This document shows, piece by piece, positions 25,464 through 46,900 of a stretch of DNA of 52,778 nucleotides (position 1 is its first letter; each line of letters starts with the position of its first letter). The translations under genes and the position numbers were made by a program. Source of the stretch: Hydrurus foetidus (lineage: Eukaryota); contig UYFQ01000090.1 of assembly GCA_900617105.1 (NCBI GenBank), positions 1 to 52,778 of the forward strand, in the 5' to 3' direction. Under the pieces are notes generated by a model. The model saw nothing but the letters and a program-made list of their open reading frames with translations. It had not been told where the DNA came from and searched no databases.

Positions 25464-25467
25464 TATA

Positions 25468-26284: not shown

Positions 26285-26478
26285 CGCATTTATTATATTC
26301 TAACGCCCCCCGTTGTTCTCTTATCTTAAAAATCATAAAAACATTAAAGCACGTTAAACCTATTATTACCTTATCCGTAAATTTTTGTGTTAGATTGATG
26401 TGTATTTTTTTACCCATTATAATATTTGATACAAAAAAAAACTTTATACTAAAATAGCATTATATTAGTATAAATTTA

Positions 26479-27185
26479 CTAATCACATAGTTCTCTCAGA
26501 TTAGCGTCGAGAATTCCACGACGGTATTTCTGTTGTGTTGATTCGCTATGCATCATACCATCACTAAATTTTAAACGCATTTCTGGCGTTAAATCTGGTT
26601 TTTGTAAAAACTCGCTCACTTTGGAATGTCTTATATAGTTCACCCCCCCATCTATATCTATTTTTTTATTCATGTTAGTGATATAAGTACCAAGACCCGT
26701 CTCTATCTCTTCTGGAAAAAGAAAACCAAGGAGAAGATGACGGTCAGTATACGATACAATAAGAGAACACAATTCAGGAGATAATCTACGAACGATTTTT
26801 CCGTACATATTAGATGTTTTGTAATTATTAAGAGTAATATGACATTTTTCTTTTCTATGGTCAATAAACAAAATATTGTCCGTACCATTATCGTATGGAA
26901 TTATTCGTAATATTCGCAGACAACCAAAATCATCACGAGCAGTCAATTCATCATATAAACTTGCTATGAGGTATCCTTTGGAATCTTTATCATGTCCAGC
27001 GTAAATTCGGTAGGAATTATCGGTGCTGGTTCTGGTATTGCGTTTAGTTCCTTCAATTGCTCCCGACTAATTTTCATTTTGTCAAGAATTCCTTGTTTAT
27101 GCTTCAAATAATATCGTGCTTGCCGATTACGATTTTTTATGGTAATATTTGCTAATTTCTGTGCATCTTCATTTGTATCACTCAT
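26479..27185 (-). pseudogene. tyrosine recombinase, internally deleted or frameshifted
   Basis: LIASLYDELTARDD (R), NYKT (K), NYIRHS (RH), MMHS (H), QKYRR (Y). The N-terminal ORF 26964-27185 joins out of frame near 26990. Confidence 0.82.
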
Positions 27186-27430
27186 TGTATAATAGTATTC
27201 TAAAGAACTCTTTATATTCTAACGTTAGAAATTAAAGTAACATAAAGATAAAATTGTGAATAATGTAATGTATATTACCATGCAATTACCCGATGGTTAT
27301 GAAAATGAATTCATTCAATTTCGTTTTGTCTACGACAATTATCTTCGTGAAGAGATACTTAATTATGTAAAACCCGCTATTTTATGATATTATCACTTTT
27401 GTATCGAAAAATAAAGTCATTATAATATAA

Positions 27431-27601
27431 ATGAGTACAGATACTGAAGATTACAAACAAACTATTGAAGCATATGTCTTATTAATAAAAGAAAACCATA
27501 GATTAATTGCTGAAAACCAAAAACTCAATAGAGTTTTACAACATTACAAAGAAGCCATAGAATATTTGGGGTTTGGGTTATTTGATGAAGATGAAATATA
27601 A
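27431..27601 (+). CDS. small hypothetical coiled-coil protein (56 aa)
   Basis: ATG preceded by TATAATATAA, like other PLV genes; open to TAA at 27601. Confidence 0.5.
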   Translation: MSTDTEDYKQTIEAYVLLIKENHRLIAENQKLNRVLQHYKEAIEYLGFGLFDEDEI

Positions 27602-27631
27602 ATATATAGATACAAAGTAATAAAGAACAAA

Positions 27632-27886
27632 ATGAATACACAAAATGGAAATACACAAATAGATGAAATAGAACTCAAGAGGTTACGATTAATCCAAAAA
27701 CATAATTCAGAGATGTCAGATATTCAAATTGGGATACAAATGCTCAAATTAGACGAAGTACCTGACGCAGTAAGAAAAGCTCTTTATGATGAGATTACTT
27801 ATTCATTTACTGAAAAATGGAATTATTACCGAAAAGAAATGCACAAATTAGATGATGAGATTAGTGATTTAAAAAAGTATTATTAG
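27632..27886 (+). CDS. hypothetical protein
   Basis: 84 aa ORF tiling the viral gene array. Confidence 0.55.
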   Translation: MNTQNGNTQIDEIELKRLRLIQKHNSEMSDIQIGIQMLKLDEVPDAVRKALYDEITYSFTEKWNYYRKEMHKLDDEISDLKKYY

Positions 27887-28000
27887 TATACAATAAAAAC
27901 CCATTTTTACCCCATTTTTTCAATGTCCAATCAAATTGATTTGGATTTGTATCAAACTTTATAACCATATAAAGAATAAACCAGTTATATATTATACGGA

Positions 28001-28225
28001 ATGCCACCAAAACTGACAGAAGAAGAGCGAATTGCCTCAGATTTAAGAAGGGCAGAATATGCCAGAAATTGGCGTGCTAAAAATGCCGAAAAGTTTGAAG
28101 CTTATATGCATGATTAATATATTGCGAACAAGAAACTTATCAATGATAGAAGGAATGAAAACGCAAAAAAACAGCGAATTAGGGCAAAAATAACGACCCC
28201 TGAAAAAATTGATTCAAAAATTTAG
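28001..28225 (+). pseudogene. small basic protein with premature stop
   Basis: MPPKLTEEERIA..YARNWRAKN..MHD*YIANKK; the frame continues after the stop. Confidence 0.5.
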
Positions 28226-28270
28226 GAATACTTTATAAGAGTATAAAGAATTCATACAATATATTATATT

Positions 28271-29256
28271 ATGGATAATAGTGAGATTGTAAAATTACAC
28301 GTGGAAAGTAAGGTTAAATTTATTACCGATGACGATTTGAAAGTTTTTATAAAAGAAGTACAAGGGGTATTCAAGGACGAATTGGAAGAAACGATTTCGC
28401 TAGGGCAGACACATGATTGTGAACGTATTCTGGAAATACAATACATGATACGGAAATATATCATAGACAACCAGCATCGGATTAATTTCAGTGAAAATAT
28501 AACGCTCAGAGAAAGTTCACCATATTCATTGACAAGTTTATTTGGTCTTTACATGATGGTTGTAGCAGATGTTGAACCTATAAAAACCGTAGTTGATGTT
28601 TTACGACAAGTGGAGCATACTTATTACAGAAGCATGGATAGATTTATTGAAGCAGATGCAAGTGAATTATACGCAGTAAGAGCGGTATTTTATGGAACTG
28701 AAATTCATCAAAATATGTTATGTTGTTGTAGTCATAAATGTCATATTGAAAATATGGGAATTATAAAAAATATGATTACTAACTACCACGTTGTAATCGG
28801 TTGCGATTGTATTAAAAAAACTATCTCATTGATAAAGAGGTGATAAAACAAGAACAACAGAAAACTAATAAATTTCTTAAAAATAAGGAAAAATAACTTG
28901 CTATAAGAACACAAAAAAAAATAGAAAAATGTAGATTAGAAAGACGAAATGAAGAAGAATATGAAAGACGTTGTGAAATTACAAGGATAGAACTAATAAC
29001 AGTTACAGTAACAGAAAAAGAAAAAGAAGAAGATGAGAAGAAACGTGAAATAGAAAATGCAATAGTTATGAGAAGGACTGAATTGGTAAATGATATAAGG
29101 AGGAATAATTTCCCCTGTTATATCCAAGTTGGGTATCGAGATAAGGATACTGCAAAAACACTTGGAGCTTGGTGGGACAATGATGGGAGGTCATGGTATA
29201 TCCGCCCTAATTCTATGAATATTTACACATTATTAGAAAAATACTATAAATTCTAA
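28271..29256 (+). pseudogene. disrupted gene with Cys/His cluster and C-terminal DUF5710-like domain
   Basis: CCCSHKC..VIGCDCIKK, a charged linker, then YIQVGYRDKDTAKTLGAWWD..SWY. Confidence 0.6.
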
Positions 29257-29430
29257 AAAAATATATTATTATAAAATGTTTTTTTTTATGTTATTTTTAT
29301 GCAGAAATACCATACAAAAACGATGTCCAATAAAAATTGATTCTGATTTTATAAAAAGTAATAAGTATAACACAACGGAATAAGTATATAAAGAATAAAC
29401 TCCATGTATATTATCTAGCAGTAATATACA

Positions 29431-31881
29431 ATGTCCTATATTCTCAACGAACGTATTCCACTCGAAAAATCTATCTTCATTCACGAAATGCCATTCAAGG
29501 AATTCAAGCAATATTGTAAGTCATGCAGTAATGACGATGAACGCAAGATACTTTTCAATAAGATCAAGCGAATTTGTAACGAAAATATTATCAACAATGG
29601 CTCTGTTACAAGAGAGTATAAATACAGTAATTCTATGGAACATTATGGAAGGTTATGTTCCAATGGAATGCAGGGGGTCAAGAAATCATTCAGGGGGTTC
29701 TTGATGAGTGATACTACTGATATTGATATGGATAATGCTCACCCTGTAATATTGAGTTATATTTGTAAGAAAAATGAAATCGACTGTACTCATATTGATT
29801 ATTACAACAATAATCGGGAAGAAGTGCTATGTTCTTTTCCAGATAAGACAAGAGATGAAGCTAAAAAACACCTATTAAAGTGTATAAATAACGATAAACA
29901 TAACAAGAATGACAAACACGAATTCTATAGAAAATGGGATAATGAAACGAAGAAACAACAATTATCACTTGGTAATATTGAAGAGTATAAAATGATTGGT
30001 AAGACAGTACCCGATGATAGAGATTACAATATTAAAGGTTCTACTATGTCAAGAATTTTATGTACGGTTGAAGATAAGATACTACAAGTTGTACTAAAAA
30101 TTATTGAAAAAGAAAAACTTGAAACCGCTACACTGATGTACGATGGTTGTATGATTTATGGTGACCATTACAATAATAAAGAACTATTGGAGAAAATCAC
30201 AGTAGGGGTTGAAGAACAATTCGCTGGATTGAATATGAAATGGAGTTGTAAACCACACAATAAAGATATTCTTATTCCTGATGGTTGGAAATCGAAGAAA
30301 ATGGAGAAACTATTGAAGCAGACAATTCCTGTTGAAAGAAGTGAAGTAAAAGAGGTTGAAGAAATTGTAGGAGTCATGGAAGGAGATGATTCGGGTGCAT
30401 CAAAAATAATATTGAATGCTTATCCTCACTGGAAATGCTGTAATGATGTATTATACGCATTCGATGATGAGACAGGAATGTGGAGTGATAAAGTAGAGAT
30501 ACATAATCGTGTTATATCACGATATAGTGAGTATTTAGATATTATCAAAATGAATAGTGAGGGGGAACTAAAAAGAACAGGGCGTAATTACGCCAAAAAT
30601 AACCAGAAGAGAAAGGATATTTTCCCCTTTATTAGAGAGAATTGTGTTGATAATGATTGGATTGTAAGAACTGAAACATCATCTCTCGGAAAAATCCTAT
30701 TCTTAAAAGGACACTATGATTTTAAACGTTCGAAATTTATGACGGGTAAAAAAATATCCGCAACAGACGATGAAAAGAAAAACACTGACGAAGAAAACGG
30801 ATTTAACCCTGAAATCGTATTCTTTTATAGAGTCGATCATGAACTCACTGATTTTACAGATGATGATATGGAGTATATGGATTCCATACAAGAACGCCTT
30901 TTCACACTACCACTTGGTAAAGACGTCGGGGATTACCTGACCCTTAATCTAGCACGGGCTTTTTCGGGAGACATTACGATAAAAAGGATTTTGTTTGGAC
31001 TTGGTATGAGCAACAGTGGAAAGGGAATTTTGACTAAAGCCTGTCAATTATCAATGGGCCAATATTGTGGAGTTTTTACGGGTGAAAATCTTGCGTTTAA
31101 TAACGTAAATAATGATGAAGCACAGAAGATGAGATGGGCAATGCTTTTACGAAATAAACGTTTAATCATTAGTAATGAATTATCAACGAAAAAGATGTTA
31201 GATGGAAACCTTATCAAGAAATTGGCGTCTGGCGGTGATACTATACAGGGGCGATTACACGGGCAACATGAAACCGATTTTAAACCGCAATATCTTGCTA
31301 TTCTCCTTGCTAATGACATGCCAGAAATAAAACCCTTCGACACAGCAATTCAAAATAGAGTTAGGGTATATGCTTATACAAAAGCTTTCGTAGATGAACC
31401 CAGAAATGAATATGAACTGAAGAAAGACCCTAATCTTGATAATGAGATGAAATCACGCCTATTCCAGCGTTGCTTCATTGGATTACTCATTAGAAAATAT
31501 CTGGAATTCCAAGACAACGGGTGCATAGAAAATGAACCTAATGAAGTAGTAGTGGCACGTAATGATTGGATAGGTACAACTGAAGAAAACGATATTATCA
31601 ATAAATTCCAGCAGTTTTATGAAATTACAAATTGTGAAAGTGATTTTGTACCAAGTAGAGAAATTGAGAATTATATTCGCACCATGGGTGATATGTCATA
31701 TAAAAAATTTGTGATGGAATTAAAGAAAAATTGTATTTTAAAATCACTAAAAAAAGTTAAAAATGATGGGGAAACAATCAATAAAAAAAGTATCCAAGGT
31801 TGGTTTGGTATTAAACGCATTGAGGATAATATCAACCCTGATAATATCAATCCTAATGATCTCATTACTGAAGAGTTGTAG
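29431..31881 (+). CDS. TVpol (PolA-like primase/polymerase) fused to D5-like SF3 helicase
   Basis: YGRL, DIDMDNAHPVIL (motif A-like), LMYDGCMI (motif C-like); GMSNSGKG Walker A, ISNE Walker B, LLAND motif C, IKKLASGGDTIQGR. Intact 816 aa. Confidence 0.88.
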   Translation: MSYILNERIPLEKSIFIHEMPFKEFKQYCKSCSNDDERKILFNKIKRICNENIINNGSVTREYKYSNSMEHYGRLCSNGMQGVKKSFRGFLMSDTTDIDMDNAHPVILSYICKKNEIDCTHIDYYNNNREEVLCSFPDKTRDEAKKHLLKCINNDKHNKNDKHEFYRKWDNETKKQQLSLGNIEEYKMIGKTVPDDRDYNIKGSTMSRILCTVEDKILQVVLKIIEKEKLETATLMYDGCMIYGDHYNNKELLEKITVGVEEQFAGLNMKWSCKPHNKDILIPDGWKSKKMEKLLKQTIPVERSEVKEVEEIVGVMEGDDSGASKIILNAYPHWKCCNDVLYAFDDETGMWSDKVEIHNRVISRYSEYLDIIKMNSEGELKRTGRNYAKNNQKRKDIFPFIRENCVDNDWIVRTETSSLGKILFLKGHYDFKRSKFMTGKKISATDDEKKNTDEENGFNPEIVFFYRVDHELTDFTDDDMEYMDSIQERLFTLPLGKDVGDYLTLNLARAFSGDITIKRILFGLGMSNSGKGILTKACQLSMGQYCGVFTGENLAFNNVNNDEAQKMRWAMLLRNKRLIISNELSTKKMLDGNLIKKLASGGDTIQGRLHGQHETDFKPQYLAILLANDMPEIKPFDTAIQNRVRVYAYTKAFVDEPRNEYELKKDPNLDNEMKSRLFQRCFIGLLIRKYLEFQDNGCIENEPNEVVVARNDWIGTTEENDIINKFQQFYEITNCESDFVPSREIENYIRTMGDMSYKKFVMELKKNCILKSLKKVKNDGETINKKSIQGWFGIKRIEDNINPDNINPNDLITEEL

Positions 31882-31905
31882 AAAGACAAAAAAAAACTTT
31901 CCTAG

Positions 31906-32100
31906 TAATGGGAGCAAATGGGAGCAAATGGGAGGAATGGGAGCAATGGGAGCAAATAAACCGTCACTATGTACATTCTAAAAATACGTGACGACGAGAC
32001 GTCGTTTATGACTTCCTAATAAACGTCGTCTTCTTTTTTTTTAGTATCTCTGGATTTTTAATCTCTTTTGCTCCCATTGCACCCATTTGCTCCCATTCTT
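31906..32100. repeat. second iteron-like cassette immediately downstream of the helicase gene
   Basis: 5x ATGGGAG(C/G)A, central CGTTTAT-GACTTCCTA-ATAAACG stem-loop, 3x inverted units. Confidence 0.88.
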
Positions 32101-32113
32101 AATATTATATTAG

Positions 32114-32626
32114 TTATACCTTATAAACAATTTCTCCGACATATTTCTTCTTGTTCTTCATTATAGTATCGTATTGTTTGTTTATAGAATCGAGTGAGAA
32201 TTCGTGTAAGACCCCGCCATATTCGGTTTGTACCTGTCTGAATGCGTTTTGTAATTGTGTCCAATTTGCGTAGAACCATTCACTTTTCATACTTGGGCGT
32301 GAGGGAAATATAAGCATTTTTGCGTCAGTTTCTTTTAAATTAGCGATAAGTTTCTTTTCCATTTGCCTGTATATTTTCTTTTTGTCTTCTCCATTTTGTA
32401 TCCTTGGGTAAGATAAGAAAAAGCAGATGTAGAGACCAAGTGGGTAGTACGTGTGGTAATTCTCTATACGCCCCGCTAGATCTTGTGAAGTCATACCGAC
32501 CTTGAATACAGCATTTTTTTTCTTGTCTAATTTTTCGAACGGTAGGAGACAATACAATCCGTTTTTACCTTTGAGGAACAGTTCATCATGTGTCACATTA
32601 TACTTCTTTATCTTAACGGGAACCAT
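32114..32626 (-). CDS. GIY-YIG superfamily (T5orf172-like) protein
   Basis: GLYCL..VFKVGMT..LAGRI..MEKKL..SEWF pattern. Confidence 0.75.
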   Translation of the reverse strand: MVPVKIKKYNVTHDELFLKGKNGLYCLLPFEKLDKKKNAVFKVGMTSQDLAGRIENYHTYYPLGLYICFFLSYPRIQNGEDKKKIYRQMEKKLIANLKETDAKMLIFPSRPSMKSEWFYANWTQLQNAFRQVQTEYGGVLHEFSLDSINKQYDTIMKNKKKYVGEIVYKV

Positions 32627-32910
32627 TATAATATGGAAGTATATTTTTACTCACTCAAAATCACGGAATAAATTCACCACTCAAAATCACGAAAATTATC
32701 GAAAAACCGTAAAAATTAGTCCCCCCTTTTTTTGGCAAAATCTCGTCGTTTTAGACCTAAATCCGATAAATTTTTTTGGGGGGACTAAAAAGTGTCCGTT
32801 AAAGATTTTTAGTTTCGTCCTTTTTGGTCGAAACTTGAGTGGTAAAAACACCGATGTACGTTTTTTCGTTTTTTTGTATCTCTTATTTTATTTTCTATAT
32901 TTAGTATAAT

Positions 32911-33393
32911 ATGCCAAGAAAAGTCGTTGATAAGTTAGAATCTTTAGTAGAAGAAGTCCCCGTAATGGTAGATATTCCCGAAGATAGTGAAGTAGAAGAA
33001 GAACCAAAGACGATAGAAAAGAGTAAGAAACCACGTACGGAAAAACAGAAAGAGGCGTTTTTGAAGGTCATCGAGAAACGAACGGAAGCGAGAGCTATAC
33101 GAGCAAATAATAGAGAGAAGGAAGCGAAGGAGAAAGCAGAAACCGATGCGAAGGAGGCACTGGAGAGAAAGAAGTTGCTGGAGAAAAAGATTGTGAAAAA
33201 AGCAAATATTATTGCGAAAAAGGAATTGAAGAAGCATATTGCCCTTGATGATATTAGCAGTGATGAAGATGAGAGTGACTCTGAAGTAAAAAAGGAACTT
33301 GTACGGTTCAAGAGGTCAGTTGTGGAAAAAGTGATGAAAACAACAGTTCCAGCAGTTCCGGTTCCAGTTGTACCAAAATACAGATTCGTGTAG
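32911..33393 (+). CDS. Lys/Glu-rich coiled-coil hypothetical protein
   Basis: 160 aa, KKPRTEKQKEAF motif, TATAATATG start, directly upstream of the ATPase. Confidence 0.7.
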   Translation: MPRKVVDKLESLVEEVPVMVDIPEDSEVEEEPKTIEKSKKPRTEKQKEAFLKVIEKRTEARAIRANNREKEAKEKAETDAKEALERKKLLEKKIVKKANIIAKKELKKHIALDDISSDEDESDSEVKKELVRFKRSVVEKVMKTTVPAVPVPVVPKYRFV

Positions 33394-33418
33394 ATAAAAT
33401 AGCAGTATACTACATAAA

Positions 33419-34177
33419 ATGTCAATAAGTTTAAAACATAATATACGCCCCGCTTTTCCAATAGCACGAATGAATTGTGACGATGGTCTTGATTCACGAT
33501 TGAATATGTACTCACTGACAAGTTTGATGAATTCACATGAATGTACGGTTTTATGTGGTGCGCCGAAGAGTGGTAAGACGTCTCTATTATGGGGTTTTTT
33601 TAAACACCCGAAATTATTAAAAAAAGTATTCCATAATATTTACATTTTTCAACCAACCGTAAGTGGTGAATCAATGAAGGACAATATCTTCAGTTGTCTT
33701 CCAGATAATCAGCGTTTCGATAAATTGAATTACGATGATTTAAGTGATGTTTTAGAACGAATTACCAATAGCGAAAAATGGGAGGAAAACTGTGTAATTT
33801 TCGATGATCAGGCTGCGTATTTAAAGCAAAAAAGCACACGTACTCTATTTGAAGAATTGGTGTACAATCGTAGGCATCTGAGGACAAATATTTTCTTCTT
33901 AACACAGGGATGGAAGAAAATCCCTTTAGATCTCCGCAAGGTACTTTCTAATATATTTTTATTCAAGGTTGCCAAGAAAGAGTTGTATACAATCTGGGAC
34001 GAAGCAATAGAGGAGAATGTGGATTTAGTGCCAAAAATAAGTAAATTAGTTTTTGATAAGAAGCATAATTTTTTATTTGTGAATGTGGAGAGTAAGAGAA
34101 TGTTTAAAAACTGGGACGAAATTCTAATTTTCGACCCCGACGATGATGATGAGGAAGAGGCGATAAAAACAATATAA
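33419..34177 (+). CDS. A32-like (FtsK/HerA) genome packaging ATPase
   Basis: GAPKSGKT Walker A, CVIFDD Walker B, RRHLRTNIFFLTQ, IPLDLR. Confidence 0.92.
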   Translation: MSISLKHNIRPAFPIARMNCDDGLDSRLNMYSLTSLMNSHECTVLCGAPKSGKTSLLWGFFKHPKLLKKVFHNIYIFQPTVSGESMKDNIFSCLPDNQRFDKLNYDDLSDVLERITNSEKWEENCVIFDDQAAYLKQKSTRTLFEELVYNRRHLRTNIFFLTQGWKKIPLDLRKVLSNIFLFKVAKKELYTIWDEAIEENVDLVPKISKLVFDKKHNFLFVNVESKRMFKNWDEILIFDPDDDDEEEAIKTI

Positions 34178-34201
34178 AGATATAGGACAATATAAGATAT
34201 A

Positions 34202-34639
34202 ATGCCAAGAAAAGCGATTGATTACAGTAAATCACTCGTGTATCGTATAGCGAATAAGGATACAACGTATTATATAGGTTCGACGACTAATTTTAGAAAA
34301 AGAAAAAGTCAACATAAAAGTAATTGTAAAAATGTAAAATCACCAGAATACAATAAAACATTATACCAGTTTATTCGTGAAAATGGTGGTTGGAGTGATG
34401 AGTGGGTTATGGTTCTCGTTCAGTCATATCCTAATTGTAAAACATCAATTGAACTATTGAAATATGAACGGGAACATTATGATATTTACAAACCAGAAAT
34501 GAATGTAAAGAAACCTTATTTATATGAAGGTGAGAAAGAAGAACATTGTAAAGAATATAAAATAGAAAAAGTGAAATTGAATACTCTGGAAAAGCCAAAA
34601 CCAAAAACAAAAGTAAAGACGGAGACAAAATTCATTTAA
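34202..34639 (+). CDS. GIY-YIG endonuclease
   Basis: VYRI..YYIGSTTNFRKRKSQHK..LYQFIRENGGW..YEREH. Confidence 0.88.
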   Translation: MPRKAIDYSKSLVYRIANKDTTYYIGSTTNFRKRKSQHKSNCKNVKSPEYNKTLYQFIRENGGWSDEWVMVLVQSYPNCKTSIELLKYEREHYDIYKPEMNVKKPYLYEGEKEEHCKEYKIEKVKLNTLEKPKPKTKVKTETKFI

Positions 34640-34661
34640 ATATCTAATAGTATCTTAACTA

Positions 34662-35399
34662 ATGTCAATTAAGATACTACTCAACTCAAAAGATAGGGTA
34701 AATAGTGCTACTTCAGCAAATGATTGTGAGTTTCGTGTCAATTGGGGTGCGATATTGGACGATGGAAAATACCGTGTAAGTTATAGCATTTGTAAGCAGT
34801 TAATTCCCGTAATACCAGAAATACCTTGGGTTTTTAGAGTGCAGAGTCCAACATCAACAATACCAACAACAGTAGATGGTTTTACCTTATCAAATAATAA
34901 TGTGAACACTGTTATTGATAGTGTACGTGAGAATGTATTTAATTTTAGGGGTAATGGATTTTTATCATTAAGCGTCCCCACGCCCGTGAATTCAACGAAG
35001 ACATTGTGGGTGATGATTCCGAATATGACTGTAACTAAAAATAATAATGTGTTTAGTTCCCGAAAAATGCCAGTATGGTTTAATCGCACAATTTTTTTAA
35101 GAGCATCTGTTAATTTTGGTGTATCAGGAGGAGGTGATGTTATATCATCAGTAGCACAGACATCAGGTGTATGGAAATTTTACGCAATAACAACAACCGC
35201 AACAGAGACAAAAATATATGTAGATGGTGTGCTTGTAACATCGAGGAATGTGACGTGGGGAGGTGATACAGCAGCGATAAATTTCGGTGCGTATCTTGGT
35301 GCATCGTTTTTAACGGGCCTTCTGGACGATATGAGGTTATATTCGAGTACTCTCACAGCAACAGATATAAATGATTTATATACAAGAACATTATTATAA
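34662..35399 (+). CDS. N-terminal penton-like segment fused to a LamG/concanavalin-like domain
   Basis: ILLNSKDR..VNWG resembles the N-terminus of ORF 35694. WKFYAIT..KIYVDG..FTGLLDDMRLY-like ending (FLTGLLDDMRLYSSTLTATDINDLY) is a LamG signature. Confidence 0.75.
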   Translation: MSIKILLNSKDRVNSATSANDCEFRVNWGAILDDGKYRVSYSICKQLIPVIPEIPWVFRVQSPTSTIPTTVDGFTLSNNNVNTVIDSVRENVFNFRGNGFLSLSVPTPVNSTKTLWVMIPNMTVTKNNNVFSSRKMPVWFNRTIFLRASVNFGVSGGGDVISSVAQTSGVWKFYAITTTATETKIYVDGVLVTSRNVTWGGDTAAINFGAYLGASFLTGLLDDMRLYSSTLTATDINDLYTRTLL

Positions 35400-35417
35400 T
35401 ATACCTATTATTGTATA

Positions 35418-35672
35418 ATGTCTAATATAACTTTGCATGTAGATTTGGGTCAAGATACAGTTACAACAACATCACCAACACAAGTTGTATCGAGAAACAC
35501 GAGAGAATTAGGAAGATTTATACCCCGTGTAGATGTGAATCAGACAATTGAATTACGTAGTAGACCACAGAATAACACTTTTAGTGTCAAATTAATGGAT
35601 AATTTGACAAATTTAGTATCAACTTTAGATTATGAATATATCATACAAATTTGTTTTGAAAAGATAGAATAA
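35418..35672 (+). CDS. C-terminal half of a penton-like beta protein
   Basis: Aligns by eye to the C-terminal two-thirds of ORF 35694 (DLGQ/NLGQ, SPT, GRFIP/GSIIP, EYIIQICFEKI/EYLLALNFEKI). Confidence 0.7.
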   Translation: MSNITLHVDLGQDTVTTTSPTQVVSRNTRELGRFIPRVDVNQTIELRSRPQNNTFSVKLMDNLTNLVSTLDYEYIIQICFEKIE

Positions 35673-35693
35673 TTTCTTAACCTAGATTATATC

Positions 35694-36149
35694 ATGTCAA
35701 TTTACAATGTACTAATCAATAGTAAAAACAGAATTCCAGCACTAACATCATCATCAAATTCAAAATACTACTTCAATTGGGGGGGTGTCCTACCTGAAGG
35801 GCAGTATTTGCTTCGTTGGGGTTTTACGTGTTCTGGAGTCGATACAACAGTAAATAAAATAGGATTAGTATCAATAAATTTAGGACAGAGTAGTGTGTAT
35901 ACAGCATCTCCAACAAATGTGGGTGCATCAACCACAAATATAATTGGTTCTATCATCCCAAATGAAATTGGTACATCTTCGTTTTTGTATGGCGATTCCA
36001 ACACAAATAATATTGTCTATCTTGGTAATGCTCCATCAGTGAATGAATTTACAGTGACAATAACTTCATTAGACGATTCATTGTGGACGGATTCTGCAGG
36101 ATCTGAGATTCCAGAGTACCTTTTAGCTTTAAATTTCGAGAAAATATGA
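35694..36149 (+). CDS. small single-jelly-roll / minor capsid-like protein
   Basis: VLINSKNR N-terminus, FTVTIT and EYLLALNFEK C-terminal strands; structural gene context. Confidence 0.6.
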   Translation: MSIYNVLINSKNRIPALTSSSNSKYYFNWGGVLPEGQYLLRWGFTCSGVDTTVNKIGLVSINLGQSSVYTASPTNVGASTTNIIGSIIPNEIGTSSFLYGDSNTNNIVYLGNAPSVNEFTVTITSLDDSLWTDSAGSEIPEYLLALNFEKI

Positions 36150-36165
36150 ATAGGTATAGTATAGA

Positions 36166-36893
36166 ATGTCATATTTTACATACAACCTACAGACAATGGC
36201 AGGACTGGAGAGTGTCAGTGATGGTGTTGCAACCTTGGAAAATGGAGTATTAGAATGTGATAGGGTAATAGCAGATGATATTGAGACAAATAGTTTAAAT
36301 ACAATAAATTTGAGTGTATTGAATAATATTACAGCGGGTGAATCGATTGCAATAGGACGTGATGTAGCAGTCGGAAATAGTATTGTCTCTCCGAATTTGT
36401 ACACAACAAAATTAGTATCAAGTATTTTGGAATGCAAAAAGTTAAAAACAGAAAATATTCATTTGTATAATAATTTACAATCATATGATGATACAAATGT
36501 GGGATATATAAAAACTGCAATAATAGCATCATCATCATTATTATTTACAAATACAGTAAGAGTATCGTCTCTTTACCTTTACCAATCGGTGTATATACCA
36601 TATCATATTGTTTTACTCTGGGATTGTCAGGTGTGTCACTTCCATCACTACATAGTTTATCTCATGGACTTTCTACAGATAATCAGAATTTTAATGTGAT
36701 ACAAAAAAAGAACTATCAAAACTTGGTGTATAACGACAGTTTATCTTATGTAACATTTTACGAAACGGGATTTTTCCATATTACAGATTATAATAGTTCA
36801 TTGTATCTATTAATAAGACATAATACGGCAGTAAATACCTCGAGTAGAATACTAATAGAGAACGCCAAAATATCAGTATTACGAATAGCATAA
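36166..36893 (+). pseudogene. putative fibre or structural protein, frameshifted near 36580-36625
   Basis: Two overlapping ORFs; beta-rich repeats; located in the structural cluster. Confidence 0.5.
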
Positions 36894-36925
36894 ATAATAT
36901 TATAATATAACCTTATAGTAATATA

Positions 36926-38374
36926 ATGTCAAATATTTCAGCATTAAATTTGGCAGTAAGCGGGACTTGTGGAATAAGTGGTGGTGTCAGTTTATCATCA
37001 CCTCTAATCAGTGGATCATCTTGTTCTTATCAAGGTATTACAACAAATACATTGACCACAACTGGTGCAGTTCTTCATAACTCTCTACCAATATGCAATG
37101 TATTACCATCATTGCCGAATCAGTTAGTATCAAAGGGATATACTGATATACAGAACAACGCACAGAGCGTCTTAATTAGTGATTTAGAAATACGAGCAAC
37201 AGCAATAGAAGATTTAAATGTAGTTCAAGATACACGACTTGCAGATATAGAAAATACAAATGCATTGCAAGATGTATCAATAAGCGATATTGAAGTTGTA
37301 AATACCAACCAAAGGACGAGATTAGATGGAATTGACACTTTGAATAATACGCAAAATACAGATATAAGTGCGTTACAGACAAGGGCAACAGCGATTGAGG
37401 GTGTCAATACAACGCAGAACTCGAATATTACAGCATTACAGACAAGGGCAACAGCAATTGAGGGTGTCAATACAACGCAGAACACGAATATCACAGCATT
37501 ACAGACACGTGCAACAGCAATAGAAACGGTCAATACTACACAGAATACGAGTATCACTGCGTTACAGACACGTGCAACAGCAATAGAAACGGTCAATACC
37601 ACGCAAAATACGAATATTACAGCATTACAGACACGTGCTACAGCAATAGAAACCGTGAATACGAATCAGGCGACATCAATCACGAATATAGATACATTGA
37701 ATACAACACAGAACACCCGCATAACCAATGTGGAAAATACAAACACTAATCAATCAAACTTATTGACAACTATGATTACTTTAAACACGACGCAAAATGA
37801 CCGCCTGACAGCGATTGAGGGAGTAAATACGACTCAAGGGACAAATATCACTGCATTACAGACACGTGCTACAGCAATAGAGACCGTAAACACTAATCAA
37901 GACGCAGTAAATACCACACAAAATACTAATATTACAGCTTTACAGCAGAAGACGACTCCAATTGTATATACAACCCCCGTAGCGGGTGCATTAACATCAT
38001 TAACGTCATCATTAGACATACTACCTTATGTATCAAGTACATTCTTAAAAGTGTATAATATTAACAATCAAGCAATCACTTGTTTAGGACAGGCGATTTT
38101 CGCTGGGTTAGGGATCATAACGACACGATTACAATTAGGTAATTTTGGGACGATAATGACTGGAATGTCTTTTGGTAATACTTTAAGCGTCGTTGGGAAT
38201 AATGTGGTGAATTTTCCAGCATCATCATTTTCAGGAGGAGTTGTACCAAGAGTGCTAATTAGTCCATCAGGGAATGGTGTTTTTTTTGTAGTCAGCAGAA
38301 CCCTTATATCATTTACTTATTCCGCATCAGTAGCGGGTGTGAATGTAGATTGGATCGCATTACAGTCAGTTTAA
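36926..38374 (+). CDS. fibre-like protein with 21 aa coiled-coil repeats
   Basis: TRATAIE(G/T)VNTTQNTNITALQ repeats (63 bp units, ~37345-37945) and a beta-rich C-terminal head ending VDWIAL. Confidence 0.78.
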   Translation: MSNISALNLAVSGTCGISGGVSLSSPLISGSSCSYQGITTNTLTTTGAVLHNSLPICNVLPSLPNQLVSKGYTDIQNNAQSVLISDLEIRATAIEDLNVVQDTRLADIENTNALQDVSISDIEVVNTNQRTRLDGIDTLNNTQNTDISALQTRATAIEGVNTTQNSNITALQTRATAIEGVNTTQNTNITALQTRATAIETVNTTQNTSITALQTRATAIETVNTTQNTNITALQTRATAIETVNTNQATSITNIDTLNTTQNTRITNVENTNTNQSNLLTTMITLNTTQNDRLTAIEGVNTTQGTNITALQTRATAIETVNTNQDAVNTTQNTNITALQQKTTPIVYTTPVAGALTSLTSSLDILPYVSSTFLKVYNINNQAITCLGQAIFAGLGIITTRLQLGNFGTIMTGMSFGNTLSVVGNNVVNFPASSFSGGVVPRVLISPSGNGVFFVVSRTLISFTYSASVAGVNVDWIALQSV

Positions 38375-38395
38375 ATATCAATATATCACATACAA

Positions 38396-38626
38396 ATGAC
38401 ACAATTCATTGAGTCATCTAATTCTATAACAGTAATAACTCTAACATTCGGTTTTTTATCAATGGCGTTAATCACAATAACAACGTGTATTTTCAAGGTG
38501 AAGTGTCGTGAGTGTGTTTTAGGGTGTTGTAAAATTACCCGTGATGTATCAGCAGAAAACTTGGAATTGGAGATAGAGAGCAGAACTAATCGTAAAGATA
38601 ATATACCCCCGCCATCAATCGTTTAG
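38396..38626 (+). CDS. small membrane protein with Cys cluster
   Basis: N-terminal hydrophobic helix followed by KCRECVLGCCKITRD. Confidence 0.6.
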   Translation: MTQFIESSNSITVITLTFGFLSMALITITTCIFKVKCRECVLGCCKITRDVSAENLELEIESRTNRKDNIPPPSIV

Positions 38627-38673
38627 TTTTAGCATTATATTAATATGTTTTAATATAATATACTAAAAGTAAA

Positions 38674-38937
38674 ATGGGATTTTTTGGATCTTTGTTAGGA
38701 GGTGGATTAGGTGCTATCGGTTCTAAATTTTTACCCATTCCAGGCGTGGATGGTCAGGTGCTCGGAACAGCCCTTGGTGGACTAGCCCCGTTCAAGACAG
38801 GCGGTGCAGTTGGTCCAAGAAATAGAGCGTGTCTACTTCATAAGAATGAATACGTATTGCCCGCAAATGCTAAACCAACAAAAGCACAACGAGCAATCGT
38901 AGCAAAAAACAAGCGTAATGCCAAGAAAAAGAAGTAG
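38674..38937 (+). CDS. small Gly-rich protein with N-myristoylation consensus and basic tail
   Basis: MGFFGS (MGxxxS), Gly-rich amphipathic N-terminus, LLHKNEYVLP, KKKK tail. Confidence 0.65.
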   Translation: MGFFGSLLGGGLGAIGSKFLPIPGVDGQVLGTALGGLAPFKTGGAVGPRNRACLLHKNEYVLPANAKPTKAQRAIVAKNKRNAKKKK

Positions 38938-38998
38938 ATGAAAAAAAATGATATAGAAAAAAGTTAATACATTATAATACATAAAGCGAGGTTTTATA

Positions 38999-39677
38999 AT
39001 GCCAAAGAAACCGATTAATTATAAGAAAACGTGTGTTTACAGATTAATTTACAACGATATTACCTGTTATGTTGGTTCAACTACCAATATGAGACAGCGT
39101 AAATCACAACATAGACGTGGTTGTTATAACGAGAAAAATAAGGACTACAATTATCCATTGTATAAGTTTATTCGTGAGAATGAAGGGTTTAACAACTGGA
39201 AAATGATTATGGTTCATGCGTACCCTGAGTGTAAAACAAGTGAAGAGTTAAGAATGCATGAGAGGAATCACATTGAAGAACTCAAACCATCGTTAAACGT
39301 AAATCGCCCTATTGTAACAGAGGAAGAAAAAAAATGATGCAAATGACCGAAGCAGATAAGCACGTTTAGAAAATCCAGAACAATTAAAACAATGGAGATT
39401 GGAAAATGTAGAACACGTAAAAAAATATAAGTTACAATATTGTGTTGATAATGCTGATAAAATTAGAGAGTACGCAGATGCACATAGAGATGAAATAAAC
39501 TTAAAAGGTAAAATGTATCGTGAAGCAAACGCCGAAAAGATAAAGGAGCGAGATAAAAAGACAACTTGTATGTGAATGTGGACGTGTTGTAAATTTACGC
39601 CATAAAAAAAGTCACGAGAAATTAAAAATTCACATAAACTTGATGGAAGCAAAAAAGAAGTAAAGCATGATACATAA
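38999..39677 (+). pseudogene. second GIY-YIG endonuclease, disrupted, with C-terminal CECG..H..H finger
   Basis: Paralogue of 34202-34639 (VYRL..YVGSTTNMRQRKSQH). Frameshift in the A-run near 39330 and a later stop. Confidence 0.8.
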
Positions 39678-39707
39678 TAAAATATATATAAGAATCTTTT
39701 ATAATGT

Positions 39708-40228
39708 CTAACCACCTGTGTTTGTTTTTTTTCTAACCTCTTTTCCCGTGCCTTTTGGTTACGAAGTAATCGACGTGTTTCTATCTCGTCTGGGGTCAAT
39801 GGGTGTTGAGCCCGTGTTCGTCTTGCTATTGGAGTAGTATTATCATAGTAGAAATTATCATCAGGTGTTTTGTATAAGTCCGTAAGATTTACAACCGCTT
39901 CATCATATTTTCTTTTACTTGGAACTGGAATTTTACTAACTCGTATTCCTTGAGGGGTCAATGTCTGTATTCCAACGCTATTTGTAGGTATTCTAACTGG
40001 TTCAAATACAGTTTCTTTTACCGTTCCTACTGTATTATAAATAATTGGAGGAGATGGTTCACCTTGTAAAGTAATATACTGTGGTTGTTGGCGATACGCA
40101 GGTTGTGGAGCAGTCCTTTTTGCCCTTGCTTTGGTGGTGTTAATATTTACTACGACGCTTTGTGATTGTTTCTGTTTCTGCTTCAACCCCTTTTTAGATA
40201 GTTTTTTGGTAATTCTCTTTTTTGCCAT
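39708..40228 (-). CDS. basic putative core protein (KQKQKQSQSVVVNI motif)
   Basis: Lys/Arg-rich. The called ORF runs on to 39293, probably through a homopolymer frameshift near 39730; the likely stop is TAG at 39708-39710. Confidence 0.6.
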
Positions 40229-40312
40229 TTACAATACCAATACATTAAAATAATCTTGAAAAACTATTTTTGAAAAATTCTGGTATATCACGATTCAGTA
40301 CGTTATTAAACT

Positions 40313-40933
40313 TCATGTTGTTGGTTGAAAATAAACTGTATCCCGTGCTTGGTTTTGTAAAAGTTCATTGCTTTGTATCTTATCTATTGCCGTAGTTGCA
40401 ACCGCTCCTACATCTGTAGTTGTATTTACAATTTTACGAAATTGTTCATTACCTTCAAATAATTGTCTAGTATCCTGTAAAACAAACTTTTCGAGAGCGT
40501 CTGTATTTAACCCGTTAGAAATGAGTAGTGAGATTATAAAGTTCTGACAGTTGTTGTCTTGGGCTTTGTAACTGAAATAAGAACCCCCCATTTTGCTTTT
40601 CGTTTTTGAAAGCATATCATTGAGAGTCAGTCCAGCATTGATAGGTACAGGTAGAGTTTCCGTCCCTATCCTCATTTTTGAGAATTTGTAAATTTGTATC
40701 ACTTCGTTTTTCTCAATAACATGTAAAGAGTTTTTAGTTTGAACAACCATAAAGAGATGATACAAAGTGTCATAATCCGTATTTTCCATCTTTTTCTCCA
40801 ACTGTCCTCGTGATGTAATATTGAGTAGGAATTTTAATACTTTTGACAGCGGGGTTCGATTTACCGTGATTTTCGTGATTTCATCGTCGCCTATCCTATG
40901 GATAATCTTTTGAACAGGATTTAAATATGACAT
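40313..40933 (-). CDS. permuted papain-like (PPPDE/NlpC-P60 type) peptidase candidate
   Basis: LYHLFMVV His precedes Y..QDNNCQNF Cys. The likely start is MSYLN after TATATAATG. Confidence 0.62.
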   Translation of the reverse strand: MSYLNPVQKIIHRIGDDEITKITVNRTPLSKVLKFLLNITSRGQLEKKMENTDYDTLYHLFMVVQTKNSLHVIEKNEVIQIYKFSKMRIGTETLPVPINAGLTLNDMLSKTKSKMGGSYFSYKAQDNNCQNFIISLLISNGLNTDALEKFVLQDTRQLFEGNEQFRKIVNTTTDVGAVATTAIDKIQSNELLQNQARDTVYFQPTT

Positions 40934-40958
40934 ATTATAGTATAAGAGAATATAAAAA

Positions 40959-41902
40959 ATGCTGACGGTTGAGTACACTCGTTACATATCTCTCAACACT
41001 CAACATTGTATCAAAAAACAAAGTAGTGGTTCCGGAAATACTTTATACGAATCTTCCTTTTTATCACAAATATCATTTGATTTAAAAAACGTCTTAAAAG
41101 ATGATGATGATATATTGTATTCTCATATTAATATTATAAATGCTCAGATTCCTGTGTCATTCTACCTTATCAATTACACAACAAATGTATTAGCATATAA
41201 AATAAATAGTGGTGTGATACAACTGATGACAATAGAGCGTGGAAATTACAATATTACGTCGCTTATGAGTGTAATCAAGCAGGGGTTTTTAAACGCAGGA
41301 TATGCATTTACAATAACATTTAATAAGGTTACAGGTAAATTGTTATTTGTATCACCAATCGGAACAACCTTTACGATATTATCCAGTAGTTCAGGTGGAA
41401 TTATCAATGAGATTATCGGTTTTGATTCTGTGTCTTCTTACATATCAACAGGTAATATCTTAAACGCCGAACATCCTGCATCTTTAATCGGAATAAAGAA
41501 ATTGAAAATCAGTTCTTCCGCTTTACATACAAGTGGTTTATCTAGTGGTGGAGGGGTGATTTACTCGGAATTATACCAGTGAGTTCTGTAGCAACAGGAT
41601 TGATACTATATGAGAACAATAGTTCAAAAAAAGGAGGTTTAATGAGAAATAAGGAAATATCAAATATTGACATTACAATTACAGATGAAAATAACCGCTA
41701 TATAAACTTCAATAATGTAGAGTATAGCATTACTCTGGCAATTACAACAACCCGTATTTTAAAAGAAAGAATTAATTCTCTATTTAGGGATCCTACACAA
41801 CAAATACTGGATACAAAGCAACCACAAAATGTAGAAACAAATACTGGGGGAGATGAAAATGATTTAGATTATTTTATGTATAAGCACGGGATACAAATAT
41901 AA
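40959..41902 (+). pseudogene. minor capsid protein (penton), frameshifted near 41555
   Basis: AQIPVSFYLIN, IERGNYN, FNKVTGKL, IIGF, then IPV..ILYEN..IDITITDEN..INFNNVEYSITL. Confidence 0.85.
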
Positions 41903-41949
41903 TGCGTTTTTATTCAAATTAATCTCTTTTGATACACTATACTTAAAGA

Positions 41950-43275
41950 ATGAGTTTAATGCTTCCAAAAGAGATTAATTACGACCTTCCTGTCTCACTT
42001 CCATCTGGCGTCCAGACATTTGATATTAACGTCCTTCCTGTGAATGGAACAAGTTTCAGTTGTGCTACGGCGGGTGCTTACGTCCAGTTCGATCTACCTG
42101 CCCGTGCTGGATATATGGACGGTAAAACCCTCGCCCTCCGTTATAAATATACTTGTGTTTCTACGGGTGTGACTCGTATCCGTGCTTGTCCTTTCTTTAC
42201 CCCTATTCTCCGTCTTGAAACCATCTTCGGATCTCAGCCAGTCCAGAACATAAATGAGTACGGTCAACTTCAGAATATGCTTATTAACCTGACGCATAAC
42301 GTGGCGGACAAAATTGGTAGTGTGACGGGTTACGGTTGGGCTCTCGAAGGTGCTGATAAGGTACATACATGGCAGTCGACTGATGGACGTTCTTGCGGAC
42401 AAAATGAGAAGGGTTCGTTTTGGGGTCCACTGAAGGGGTGTATTCTATCCGAGGCGGATAGGTATATACCAACAGGAATGATGCCAAATATCCGTATTCA
42501 ACTTACTCTTGATTCCATTGCCAACATCTTTGCTCCTCCATCGGCTGCTGCAGTAACACTAAATCTTGAAACAGGTACTCCAGTTTCAAGTGCAACAGTA
42601 ACGCCAACTGATTTTACCTTGAGCGATTTTGTGCTTTCTTACAGCCAAATTGACTTTGGTACTGAAGTAGACAATGCTGTTCGTTCTATGGGGGAGAAAA
42701 TTACAATTAAGAGTCAATCTTTCAATAGTTCATCTAACCCTATCAACTCAGGAACAGCAGGTCAGTTTGAGTTGATTTACTCACAGAAAATGGCATCCGT
42801 TAAATCACTTTTCCTTCATTGTGGTTCAGGTTCTCAGAACGGTAAATTTGATGCATTCGAAATTACATCTGGTGGTGATGTTCAATTTAGTATAGCATCT
42901 CGTCTTTATCCACAGAGTCGTCCACTTTCGTCAGCAGTAGCTTCTCGTGGTACGCTTTTCTTGGAATTGAAGAAGGCCGTGGGCAGTTTATATAACTAGC
43001 ATAACAGCATGAGTATTAACCAGCAAGAGTATTTGACCCTAGGAACTGCATCCACCGTTGTAAATCCTGCCAAGGTTTATTATGCTGTGAATACCGAACA
43101 AATACAGTCGAATTCCGTTCTTTTGAGTGGGGTTAGTACTCAAAATTCCCCCGTGACTGTCCGATTAAACATAGCTACTGCGACGGCGTTTTCCGTGTCA
43201 GCAACTCTGATTAGTGCGTTTGATGTTCTAATTGAGATAGATCCAAGTGAGAAATCTGCCCGTGTAATCCAGTAA
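41950..43275 (+). pseudogene. major capsid protein (double jelly roll) with one in-frame TAG at 42997-42999
   Basis: ORFs 41950-42999 and 43009-43275 are in the same frame (~440 codons). VQFDLP..YMDG..LRY, QNINEYG, YIP..M..IRIQLTL, VKSLF, LLSGVST; adjacent to the penton. Confidence 0.85.
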
Positions 43276-43951
43276 AAGAATGGTCTGTAAATATATGGAT
43301 AGAAAAAGGGGGTGTAACAATTTGTTACACTACGAATGAAAAAGAACTGCCGTAATTTACGGCACTACAAATGAAATAGTGTAATGAATTAGATGGTATT
43401 TAAGATAAAAAGTGAGGAGTGAGGAGTGAGGACTTGTTTTAAAGTCGTATAGAGGAGTTGAAACAAACATTTAAAAAAAGAAAAAGTTTGTTTGAACTAT
43501 ATTAAATAACATTTTTTAAGGTCCTCACTCATCACTCCTCACTTTTAATCTTAAATAGCATCTAATAACTTATGTATTTATTTATCCCCTGCGAGAGTAA
43601 AAAAACGTGATTTTGCTTACTTTTAATGGCATTTTTTGGCGTTTTTACGAGAAAATGTAAGAGAAATATGATACAAAAAAATGACTGCTAAAATGGTGTC
43701 AAGATATTATGATTTAGAAGAGACATAAAAATGATATTGTGAGAAAAAAAGAGAAAAATGAAGGAGTATTTTCACTGCTAAAATGGAGTAAATATACAAC
43801 ATGTAAAATATTATAAAATAGAGGCGTTATAATTATAACGTAAGAAAAGGGTATAAAAACGTTACATTTTCTCGTAAAAACGCCAAAAAATGCCATTAAA
43901 AGTAAGCAAAATCACGTTTTTTTACTCTCACAGGGGATAAATAAATACATA
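43206..43951. repeat. right composite terminal inverted repeat of the PLV
   Basis: Contains the MCP 3' end, the AGTGAGG cassette (43388-43567) and the fold-back module (43571-43951). Confidence 0.92.
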
Positions 43952-46900
43952 GGAGCGGGAGCGAGGGAAAAGAAGCTGGGAGAGCTATTGCTATGGAAAC
44001 AATGTGGTTAGCTTACAGATAAACACAGCAGGTATCATGGCAATGAATCGGGTGGATCGGATCGTCCTCGATCCGGTCCGAACGTACGCCTGTACCCGTA
44101 CAGCCCGTACGGGTGTGCGGGTCACAGTGCCCCCCTCTCTCTAAAGGGGTGTACTAAATGACAAAATTCATCATCAAAATACGAACTATGAGTAAGTAAC
44201 TAACTTATTGAATAACTATTTCAGACTAAGAACTGAAAGTTCCTTACTGAATAAACCTCCTTAAAATCCCTGAGGATCCAATTTAGGAGGAATCTTTATG
44301 ATTTAGTTAATCAATTTTTTTATTTTTGTTTTACCGGTTAACGGTAGTTTGCGATGAATTCGCGTGGTATTAAGTGTTTGAGGTTCTTTTTGATTAAGAA
44401 CTCATGTACTTTTTGCGCTTTACGCATGTGTGTCCACGGTTCCCATGTATTGTGTTCATGGGTGTAGTTGAGCCATTTCACATGAAATGTGAGTGATTTG
44501 TATGCTCTTATGTTTCCTTTCATTTCTAGGATTTCCTCTATGAAGAATTCTAGATAATCTCTACGAGCAATGTCAGTTGGATCGACATGCGTAGGATCAA
44601 AGTGAAACGGTTTTAGTTGGGTCATGTGGTACAACTTTTCTTTGTGTGTTACCAGATCGAGTAATGTATACTCTGCGAAGTTATGGCTGACAACTCGCAT
44701 TGGGCCGCGCCACAGTGTGTGCATGCGCGTTTCTGGTGATGTTCTTTGTTGGACAAGTACAAATGTGTCGACCCGAACTGTGTGACGTTGGGAAGTTGTT
44801 GTGCATTGTGCAAGTCGTCGGATTCTTTGAGTAGACGTGCGGTGATTTCGATGAGTTCATCTTGCAACGTTAACATTTTATCAGTTGACCGTGTGAGTGA
44901 GTCGAAATCTAAATCAATTTCATCTCTCGGAAGGAGGATGTTTGCGTCGAGGTCGATCGCGTTGCCATAGATGAGTTGTGCTGGAGACACTTTCATCCGG
45001 TCATTTACGGTTGAATTTAGTATTCTTTGTACAAACGGTAATATTTCCGCGTAGTTTTCCGTAGTTGCCCGTTCGTATGCGTACGCGGTTATATGGCGAT
45101 TGATTTCTTTGTTGATTCGCTCGACGATAGCGTTTTCTTCTGAACAGTATGGTAATATTTTGTTGTGTGTTGTTCCAACAATTTTCACAAACTCATCTAT
45201 GATGTGGCTTGCGAAGTGGGGTCCATTATCTGATCGAAGTATACATGGTGAGCCGTAGCGTCCCACGTGTTCTACAAGTGCTGTGCACGCTGATTTGGCT
45301 GTTGCATCAGGTGTTGCGTAGAGTTCGACAAACCTCGAGAAGGTGTCGATCATAACAAGGATATATCCTTTATCGGGAAATGGACCAATGAAGTCTATGT
45401 TAAGGCATTCCATTGGCTTGTATGTTGAGGTTGTGTACCGGTATGCGTTGATGGGATATTTCATTGCCGACATCTTTTGGCAACACGGACAATTTTTAAT
45501 GAATGTTTTTACTGCGTCACGCATTCCCAGCCATATGTTATTTGTTTTTTTAAATTACGCAGTGTGCGTTGTACACCACCATGTCCGACTATCGTGTTGT
45601 GGCACGTTGCAATTAGGTTATATTGCTCTGTCGTTATTGGTTTGTGTGTCAGAATTGCTGCTATTATTCCTGTTTTAGGAGGCATTCTGTTTAAACATAG
45701 GCGAGACATTGCGTCAGCAATTTCATTTTGTTTTCCCGGGATGTACCCTATCGTATATTCTAGTTCCTGCAGGGCCATACGCCATCTGCCGACCATCTCG
45801 TTTTTATCCTTTTCTAGGAACGTAAGATTTTTGTGGTCTGTTAGGATTGTGAATTTACGGTCTCGCAGCAGTGCGTCGAGATAAGTACAGCAATAATATA
45901 GCGCGAAGGCTTCTTTTTGTATTACTGACCATTTCAGTTGAGTCTTGGTAAGAGACTTGCTTACGAGAGCGACGAGTTGTTTTCTCCGTCGACTTCTTGA
46001 TACAAATAGCCGCCGATCCCGTAATCTGACGCATCGGTCATGAGGGTAATGGGCGCTGTATCGTGTATGAAATATAATAAAGGACTCTTTGCAATTAGAT
46101 CTTTTATCTTTTGAAAAGAATTTGCGGCGTCATCTGTCCAGATTAGCATTGATTGCTTTTTCGCGGCGTGATCTATAATTTTGTGCAGTGGTGCTACCAC
46201 GTTGGAGTGATTTGGTACATGATCCCGAAAATAATTGGTGAGTCCGAGGAACGATCTAAGTTCAGTCGTCTTTCGTGGCATAGGAAAGTCGGTCACACCT
46301 CTTATTTTTTTGGAACTCATAGTTATACCTTCTTTAGATATTTGTCTACCGACATATTCAACTATTCGCACATTTAGCTTTAGCTTTGCGGCTTTTAGTG
46401 AAATGTTTTTGTTTTCTAGGCGTTTGATCAATCGCTCGCAGAATTGATCAAATCCATTACCATAAACGATGATGTCGTCGAGGTATACTTCACAGATTTG
46501 GTATATTAGTCCTAAAAGGACTATTGAGGCCATCATTTCTTGGAAATATGAGGGGGCTCTTTTGGGTCCGAAAGGTAGTCGGGTAAAGTGGTAGATGCCC
46601 ATAAATGTTATGAAAGCTGTATACACACGTGTACTTAGTGTTAACGGTGCTTGGTGATATCCTGCTGTGAGGTCTATTACACCGAATGTGTCTGCTTTTT
46701 GTGAACCTAATCTTGCTAACATTTGTTTAATATTAGGGATTGGCCAGCTTGCTGATTCCGTTGCGTCGTTGAGGTGACGATAGTCGATACAGAATCGGTA
46801 TGAACCGTCTGGCTTTGCCGCGAGTGTTACTTGCGAATAGTATGATGCCTCTGATTTGACTATTATACCCTGTTCAAGCATAGTTTCAACTTGTTTTCGG

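Follow-up and report, generated by a model that had tools for sequence, protein, structure and literature searches.

The window, by which we mean the whole stretch of 52,778 nucleotides that was analysed, contains an integrated, decayed, low-GC polinton-like virus (PLV) of 18.5 kb (25468..43951), recognised by its terminal inverted repeats (TIRs) and by Pfam matches to A32 ATPase, GIY-YIG and T5orf172. Its GC content is mostly 28-38% (44% at the capsid-like gene) versus mostly 40-53% in the flanking retroelements, and its surroundings are eukaryotic Ty1 and Ty3 retroelements. With an interrupted TIR of ~750 bp, the element lies within the PLV size range (15-25 kb, with TIRs), and it carries two further marks of that class, an A32 packaging ATPase and a TVpol-SF3 replicase (PolA fold at aa 1-278 plus SF3 fold). 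Two other identities were rejected: Polinton (Maverick), since protein-primed PolB and rve integrase had no Pfam match among 22 element ORFs scanned, and SaPI/PICI element, on the Ty1/Ty3 surroundings and the element's own A32 ATPase.

The A32-like packaging ATPase gene (33419..34177, plus strand) was assigned from Pfam Pox_A32 (PF04665; E 2.4e-08, above cut-off) and an A32 tree. The gene at 41950..43275 (plus strand), interrupted by an in-frame stop, is by its gene context a candidate for the double jelly-roll major capsid protein; it has no Pfam match, and its product scores 30-41% to the largest gene adjoining A32 in small viral contigs. A gene split over two frames (26479..27218, minus strand) is tyrosine-recombinase-like, by an RH/H..Y motif. 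It too lacks a Pfam match; both pieces match L028:635-1825 (E 1.9e-19 and 4e-4), a homolog in the same position in that locus. Neither the window helicase nor the capsid-like protein, used alone, returned close loci in viral contigs. Elsewhere in the window, a reverse-transcriptase element with RNase H and integrase zinc-finger matches (19083-24801) is bounded by 142-bp repeats that are inverted, not direct, and a ~1.3 kb inverted repeat (6569-7942 and 51168-52492, 44 kb apart) is probably two retroelement ends in opposite orientation.

The replicase gene (29431..31881, plus strand; 816 aa) joins a PolA-like TVpol half (aa 1-278) to an SF3 helicase with a C-terminal winged-helix-like domain. 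A structural model (pLDDT 72.5) matches T7 DNA polymerase with Z 14.2 and the SaPI5 PriRep structure 7OM0 with Z 20.3 (rmsd 6.9, 391 residues), residues 305-811 aligning to 7OM0 337-765, C-terminal domain included. Foldseek matches of the model were D5, ASFV PrimPol and 7OLA. A PDB search by sequence found nothing. DSSP on the model places a predicted wing hairpin at aa 777-792 (31759..31806, plus strand), a candidate iteron-reading tip. This hairpin is variable among close relatives, and wings vary strongly at 60-85% identity. The TVpol and helicase halves are each found fused to other partners (P0011, P0013-P0016, P0031, P0051-P0053), which shows that swaps take place inside the gene.

Three iteron cassettes

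Each end of the element has three parts, namely an outer unit of 400 bp, an inner flank of 200 bp and, between them, a slot for a cassette. In an end-to-end comparison, the left outer TIR (25468..25867), a 400-bp unit with 90-bp inverted arms, and the right outer TIR (43563..43951), the same unit with its own arm variant, are 91% alike over 400. The inner flanks are 91% alike over 207: the left (26079..26283, minus strand) repeats the capsid-gene 3′ end and has twin hairpins and what remains of the AGTGAGG cassette arm, and the right (43205..43410, plus strand) has the native capsid-gene 3′ end and twin hairpins. These hairpins, at 43311-43364 behind the capsid gene, are copied to 26120-26176, downstream of the recombinase-like gene; the second stem differs in sequence between the ends yet still pairs, and the hairpins are terminator-like.

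The element has three cassettes, two of the GGGAGCA type bracketing the recombinase-like and TVpol-SF3 genes and one of the AGTGAGG type behind the capsid gene. The GGGAGCA cassette at 31907..32097 begins 25 bp behind the helicase stop and is the likely cognate origin; that in the left slot (25896..26073), preceded by a short left-only linker, is a 79% direct copy of it. The right slot holds the AGTGAGG cassette (43388..43566), likely the origin of a non-resident helicase type. Its arms (43388-43433 and 43521-43566) are inverted, match at 43/46 positions and enclose an 87-bp AT-rich core. AGTGAGG occurs three times in the left arm, at 43411, 43418 and 43425, and is faced in the right arm by the inverted units CCTCACT, CATCACT and CCTCACT, while the core has an 8-bp inner stem, AAACAAAC/GTTTGTTT, at 43461-43468/43486-43493. 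The sequence-only reading had described just such a layout, with ~46-bp inverted arms of three plus three units and an inner stem, a different iteron type at the right end than in the equivalent left slot, and flanks homologous between the ends, and all of it was borne out. Four AGTGAG-like words inside the helicase gene were considered as iterons and rejected as codons of conserved residues.

The cassette folds with z = -13.7, equal stability being reached in 0/200 shuffles, and 46-bp arm pairs with at most three mismatches number three in the real element and none in 30 base shuffles of it. Contigs joining the AGTGAGG cassette to the right-type outer arm were found in 4/4 public runs from three studies, with 0-5 differences; because it recurs in three independent studies, the cassette is no assembly artefact.

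Iteron type and helicase wing

Among relatives of the resident helicase (the window clade), a facing repeat array lies behind the stop in 18/20 loci with the C-terminus in view, several of them read by eye; L026 has no cassette and L117 is unclear. L105 and L118 (2/14 in one locus set) lack the C-terminus and were left out, and 71 distant D5-like loci (L034-L104) were scanned for cassettes and excluded from the counts, as was L033. The window-clade heptamers include AGGTTAC, GGTCGCC, AGGTAGG and GTATCAG, laid out as in the window. GTGAGG was found in 0/20 loci of this clade; four of its loci of two types (L113-L116) have GGTTGAG repeats, which contain TGAGG. These four also have two back-to-back cassettes behind the helicase, with the iterons of the first pointing outward. 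The two-cassette loci L021, L006, L028 and L032 have one iteron type each, and L028 repeats the cassette-recombinase-helicase-cassette block of the window's left end, again with one iteron type. Among 49 further loci scanned, where both ends are seldom in view (L119 is outside this set), a second cassette type was not seen. A search of prokaryote genomes with the window-clade alignment found nothing.

Pattern searches for GGGAGCA gave no match in one case and 106 in another, none with a helicase or AT-rich cassette, so that the link of GGGAGCA to its wing is seen in the window element alone. Those for AGTGAGG found cassettes beside a different helicase in L006, L019, L020, L021 and L023; GC-rich matches to AGTGAGGx3 that were inspected (L002, L009, L011, L013; 24 matches in total) were rejected, having neither helicase nor AT-rich core. 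The window's iteron-plus-spacer motif matched nothing in metagenome or prokaryote contigs; the five distinct elements (eight loci) that do match it all have the other wing, whole or as a relic. This other clade resembles the window clade in the TVpol half (~40%), but the helicase halves do not align, and no helicase half of the other clade is encoded in the window.

A protein search for the other clade gave 40 loci, of which 24 non-redundant complete rows were kept; the 16 dropped were near-copies (L124-126, L133-134, L138, L143, L146, L151), cut off (L139, L140, L144, L148), frameshifted (L127) or relics (L156-157). One of the contigs concerned (L137/L138, 28.8 kb) is a perfect palindrome, either an assembly fold-back or a hairpin-ended genome. 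TGAGG-type arrays accompany 17/17 proteins with an H[TS]xxG[ED][TA] wing and 0/7 with other wings. Fifteen of the 17 arrays are behind the stop and two upstream only, and four are degenerate (GTGATG or GTGAAG units); five rows were first found by iteron and 12 by protein pattern alone. On a helicase-core tree the wing/iteron label needs at least four changes, three of them forced by starred branches. L155 is 86-87% identical to L149, L150 and L152, yet differs from them in both wing and iteron, and it has both in common with L020 at 39% identity. Across the relatives compared here, then, iteron type is shown by sequence to co-vary with the helicase wing.

Judged by whether its iteron matches the resident protein, the AGTGAGG cassette differs from the resident array and, comparatively, tracks another clade. 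The sequence-only reading had proposed that architecture was kept while specificity switched, and had suggested looking for other AGTGAGG copies and the helicases in front of them. That comparison supports the proposal, since iteron type follows the helicase C-terminus among relatives and AGTGAGG arrays sit behind a different helicase clade, no member of which is in the window.

The cassettes are putative origins, as read from their SaPI-like anatomy. Their strong fold-back potential and their position behind genes and near ends would also suit hairpin terminators or recombinase sites, but we consider this extremely improbable: the iterons follow the helicase wing and not the end of the adjoining gene, the capsid gene already has separate twin hairpins directly behind it, and some cassettes are upstream of helicases.

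AGTGAGG might instead be read by the element's own helicase, or by a near allele whose wing differs, in which case both cassettes would be cognate and the asymmetry tolerated. GGGAGCA and GTGAGGA have 5/7 letters in common and one resident unit is GGGAGGA, so cross-reading of the cassettes is possible; wing variation among the 60-85% identical relatives, the TGAGG-containing repeats reached by L113-L116 and the conservation of the AGTGAGG cassette point the same way. We nevertheless judge it quite unlikely, in view of the lack of GTGAGG in all 20 window-clade loci, the different repeat period (7 versus 9-10) and the other wing in all five distinct elements that have the window's iteron-plus-spacer motif.

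A probable replacement at the left end

The explanation that we favour, on sequence comparison, is that the AGTGAGG cassette is probably an origin for a helicase type absent from the element, left at the right end after a swap of the replication module at the left; a leftover start site is likely because cassettes of this type elsewhere adjoin a different helicase. Both ends would once have had one common 750-bp TIR copied from the right end, since the left inner flank contains the capsid gene 3′ end. An incoming module with GGGAGCA origins would then have replaced the left cassette by recombination in the common flanks, and the right cassette would have stayed, idle unless a sister element supplies a matching helicase. 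Initiation would be as for SaPI Rep, with hexamers that use the winged-helix domain to load at the facing repeats and that melt the AT-rich core. The direction of replacement is one that we infer; at the left end ~24 bp survive from the inner arm of the AGTGAGG cassette, iterons not included, and this does not fix the direction because copying could also lengthen the arms.

That origins are left behind is seen in L119, which keeps a relic wing and an older GTGAGGA cassette after its new wing and cassette. In this 330-kb viral contig (L119:12194-12650) the TGAGGGG and GTGAGGA cassettes are in tandem, with a relic helicase tail between. In a further large viral contig (L156:10001-10278), an intact AGTGAGG cassette still stands behind a relic helicase wing of 42 codons. 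Counting against a left-behind origin are the intact, near-invariant state of the cassette (0-5 differences across studies), unlike that of a long-idle site, the TGAGG-containing repeats of L113-L116, and the 5/7 letters in common together with the resident GGGAGGA unit. The integrity of the cassette fits recent origin or use in trans.

Helicase clades are shown by sequence to move freely across capsid backbones. In an A32 tree of 18 rows the helicase clade changes five times, clustering no more than in shuffles, and near-identical A32 ATPases are found with either clade. The window's five nearest A32 matches carry the other helicase clade; its branch in the tree may join either those five rows or L028.

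The element abuts two different retroelements, at left the 3′ part of a host Ty3 integrase-chromodomain gene (25035..25467, minus strand) and at right an LTR-like repeat of a different retroelement copy (43952..44126, minus strand). The empty-site continuations of these flanks do not match each other, an empty-site test recovered no single target, and no target duplication was seen at the element ends. This copy is therefore rearranged, and either recombination between two insertions or a deletion next to the element would fit. The right flank starts in a GGGAGC-containing LTR stretch that resembles the resident iteron, in this one case only.

Such flanks raise the alternative of a one-off recombinant between two symmetric integrated relatives, one GGGAGCA and giving the left end, the other AGTGAGG and giving the right; the cassette would still be non-cognate, and the asymmetry a property of this locus or assembly. 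The 90-bp TIR arms also speak for it, differing by 1/90 within an end and by 9-11/90 between ends, as does the AGTGAGG path, which joins the right-type arm, while loose-end contigs (43574-43576) differ from it by 6-10/~70, like the left-type arm. These differences suggest that the arms of each end are kept alike by a process such as fold-back copying. We hold the recombinant to be unlikely all the same. The left end carries the capsid-gene tail copy, and that junction recurs in 3/4 public runs; the middles of the outer TIRs are only three mismatches and one 11-nt gap apart; and an adjacent host deletion accounts equally well for the flanks. The sequence-only reading had named two routes to the asymmetry, recombination of two relatives or conversion of one TIR by a newly acquired helicase, and either may apply. 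Flanks from two retroelements speak for a recombined copy; that both end types are found again in other samples speaks for a hybrid that has become established.

In the public runs, of which one may be the window's own source and the others are metagenomes, one and the same outer arm leads into three kinds of path, AGTGAGG, GGGAGCA-type and AGGTAGG-type. Of these runs, 3/4 also contain an AGTGAGG cassette in a second context, where the gene in front could be a helicase of the window clade that has a different wing. Some contigs of one run pass over the helicase end seen in the window, or the helicase block as a whole, and no contig in the runs examined spans the whole element. Contig depths were discarded as copy numbers (TIR-joined AGTGAGG 993/22/19, second context 405/9/9, capsid-gene end 565/20/18) since several models fit them.

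The mixed state could instead be under selection, if AGTGAGG-type helicases encoded by sister elements, or by a helper giant virus, acted in trans on the right origin and so gave the genome two entry points. AGTGAGG-type helicase cassettes are indeed present in large viral contigs and giant-virus bins (L020, L119-L127), the cassette is intact in three studies, and the second-context copy co-occurs in 3/4 runs. This is very unlikely, we think, as none of the 49 other loci scanned has a second cassette type, although few have both ends visible, and recent origin accounts for the intactness as well.

Known replicons and significance

SaPI Rep is described as binding its iterons through a C-terminal winged helix, the iterons being opposed, directly 3′ of rep and separated by an AT-rich core (PMC9371898; bioRxiv 10.64898/2026.10.17.759575). 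By analogy, the element would work like a SaPI replicon and is not itself a SaPI. SaPI5 PriRep (PDB 7OM0/7OLA) is, like the window replicase as modelled, an SF3 helicase with a C-terminal winged-helix domain, and the SaPI rep-ori matches the GGGAGCA cassette at 31907 in its opposed short iterons, AT-rich core and place directly 3′ of the gene. The window differs in being that of a eukaryotic virus, in a PolA-like N-terminus in place of the primase, and in a putative origin of 150-200 bp (versus ~300 bp) that is duplicated into the terminal repeat. Unlike SaPI, it also has a second, non-matching type of candidate origin in one genome.

For PLVs, Barth et al. (2024; PMC11296320) describe modules at the element ends, a Gezel-14T repeat that is found in the TIR and again behind its module, and a model of replicon replacement. 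The likeness to what is set out there extends to one end that carries a recombinase(-like) gene with a primase-helicase, to a repeat that the TIR and the region behind the module have in common, and to a modelled chimeric element retaining its capsid genes. Their model replaces PolB modules, whereas in the window one TVpol-SF3 type replaces another with the old site still present; the main text has neither the word 'iteron' nor a specificity code. A study of Polisuviricotina (bioRxiv 10.64898/2026.10.13.758929) describes replicase turnover with bracketing repeats, and its mosaicism is similar in the repeats around replicases, the identical morphogenesis modules with different replicases and the domain-level swaps. 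It has genomes with two replicases, while the window has one replicase and two putative origin types; in the main text of that study, neither 'iteron' nor 'winged' occurs. The PgVV-14T preprint (10.1101/2022.07.28.501842) mentions unit differences between TIRs. Among the listings of a literature search, none dealt with iteron arrays, or with mixed origins, in PLVs.

The AGTGAGG cassette is a real and recurrent feature, likely a non-cognate origin that marks one terminus of this mosaic PLV. A bolder reading, which we put forward as an unlikely one, is of a PLV lineage with a two-key replicon, whose ends would be addressed by different initiator families (its own helicase, or an AGTGAGG-type one from sister elements or a helper giant virus); the ends would be plug-in slots between fixed flanks, with a wing-to-heptamer code readable from sequence. 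PLV replication start sites have so far been candidates only, and PLV replicon replacement a gene-content model. On the reading of a replication-module swap, probable as we have worded it, the element would give DNA-level evidence for a half-finished exchange, and it would offer a built-in control, with one matching and one non-matching candidate origin for one helicase in one genome.
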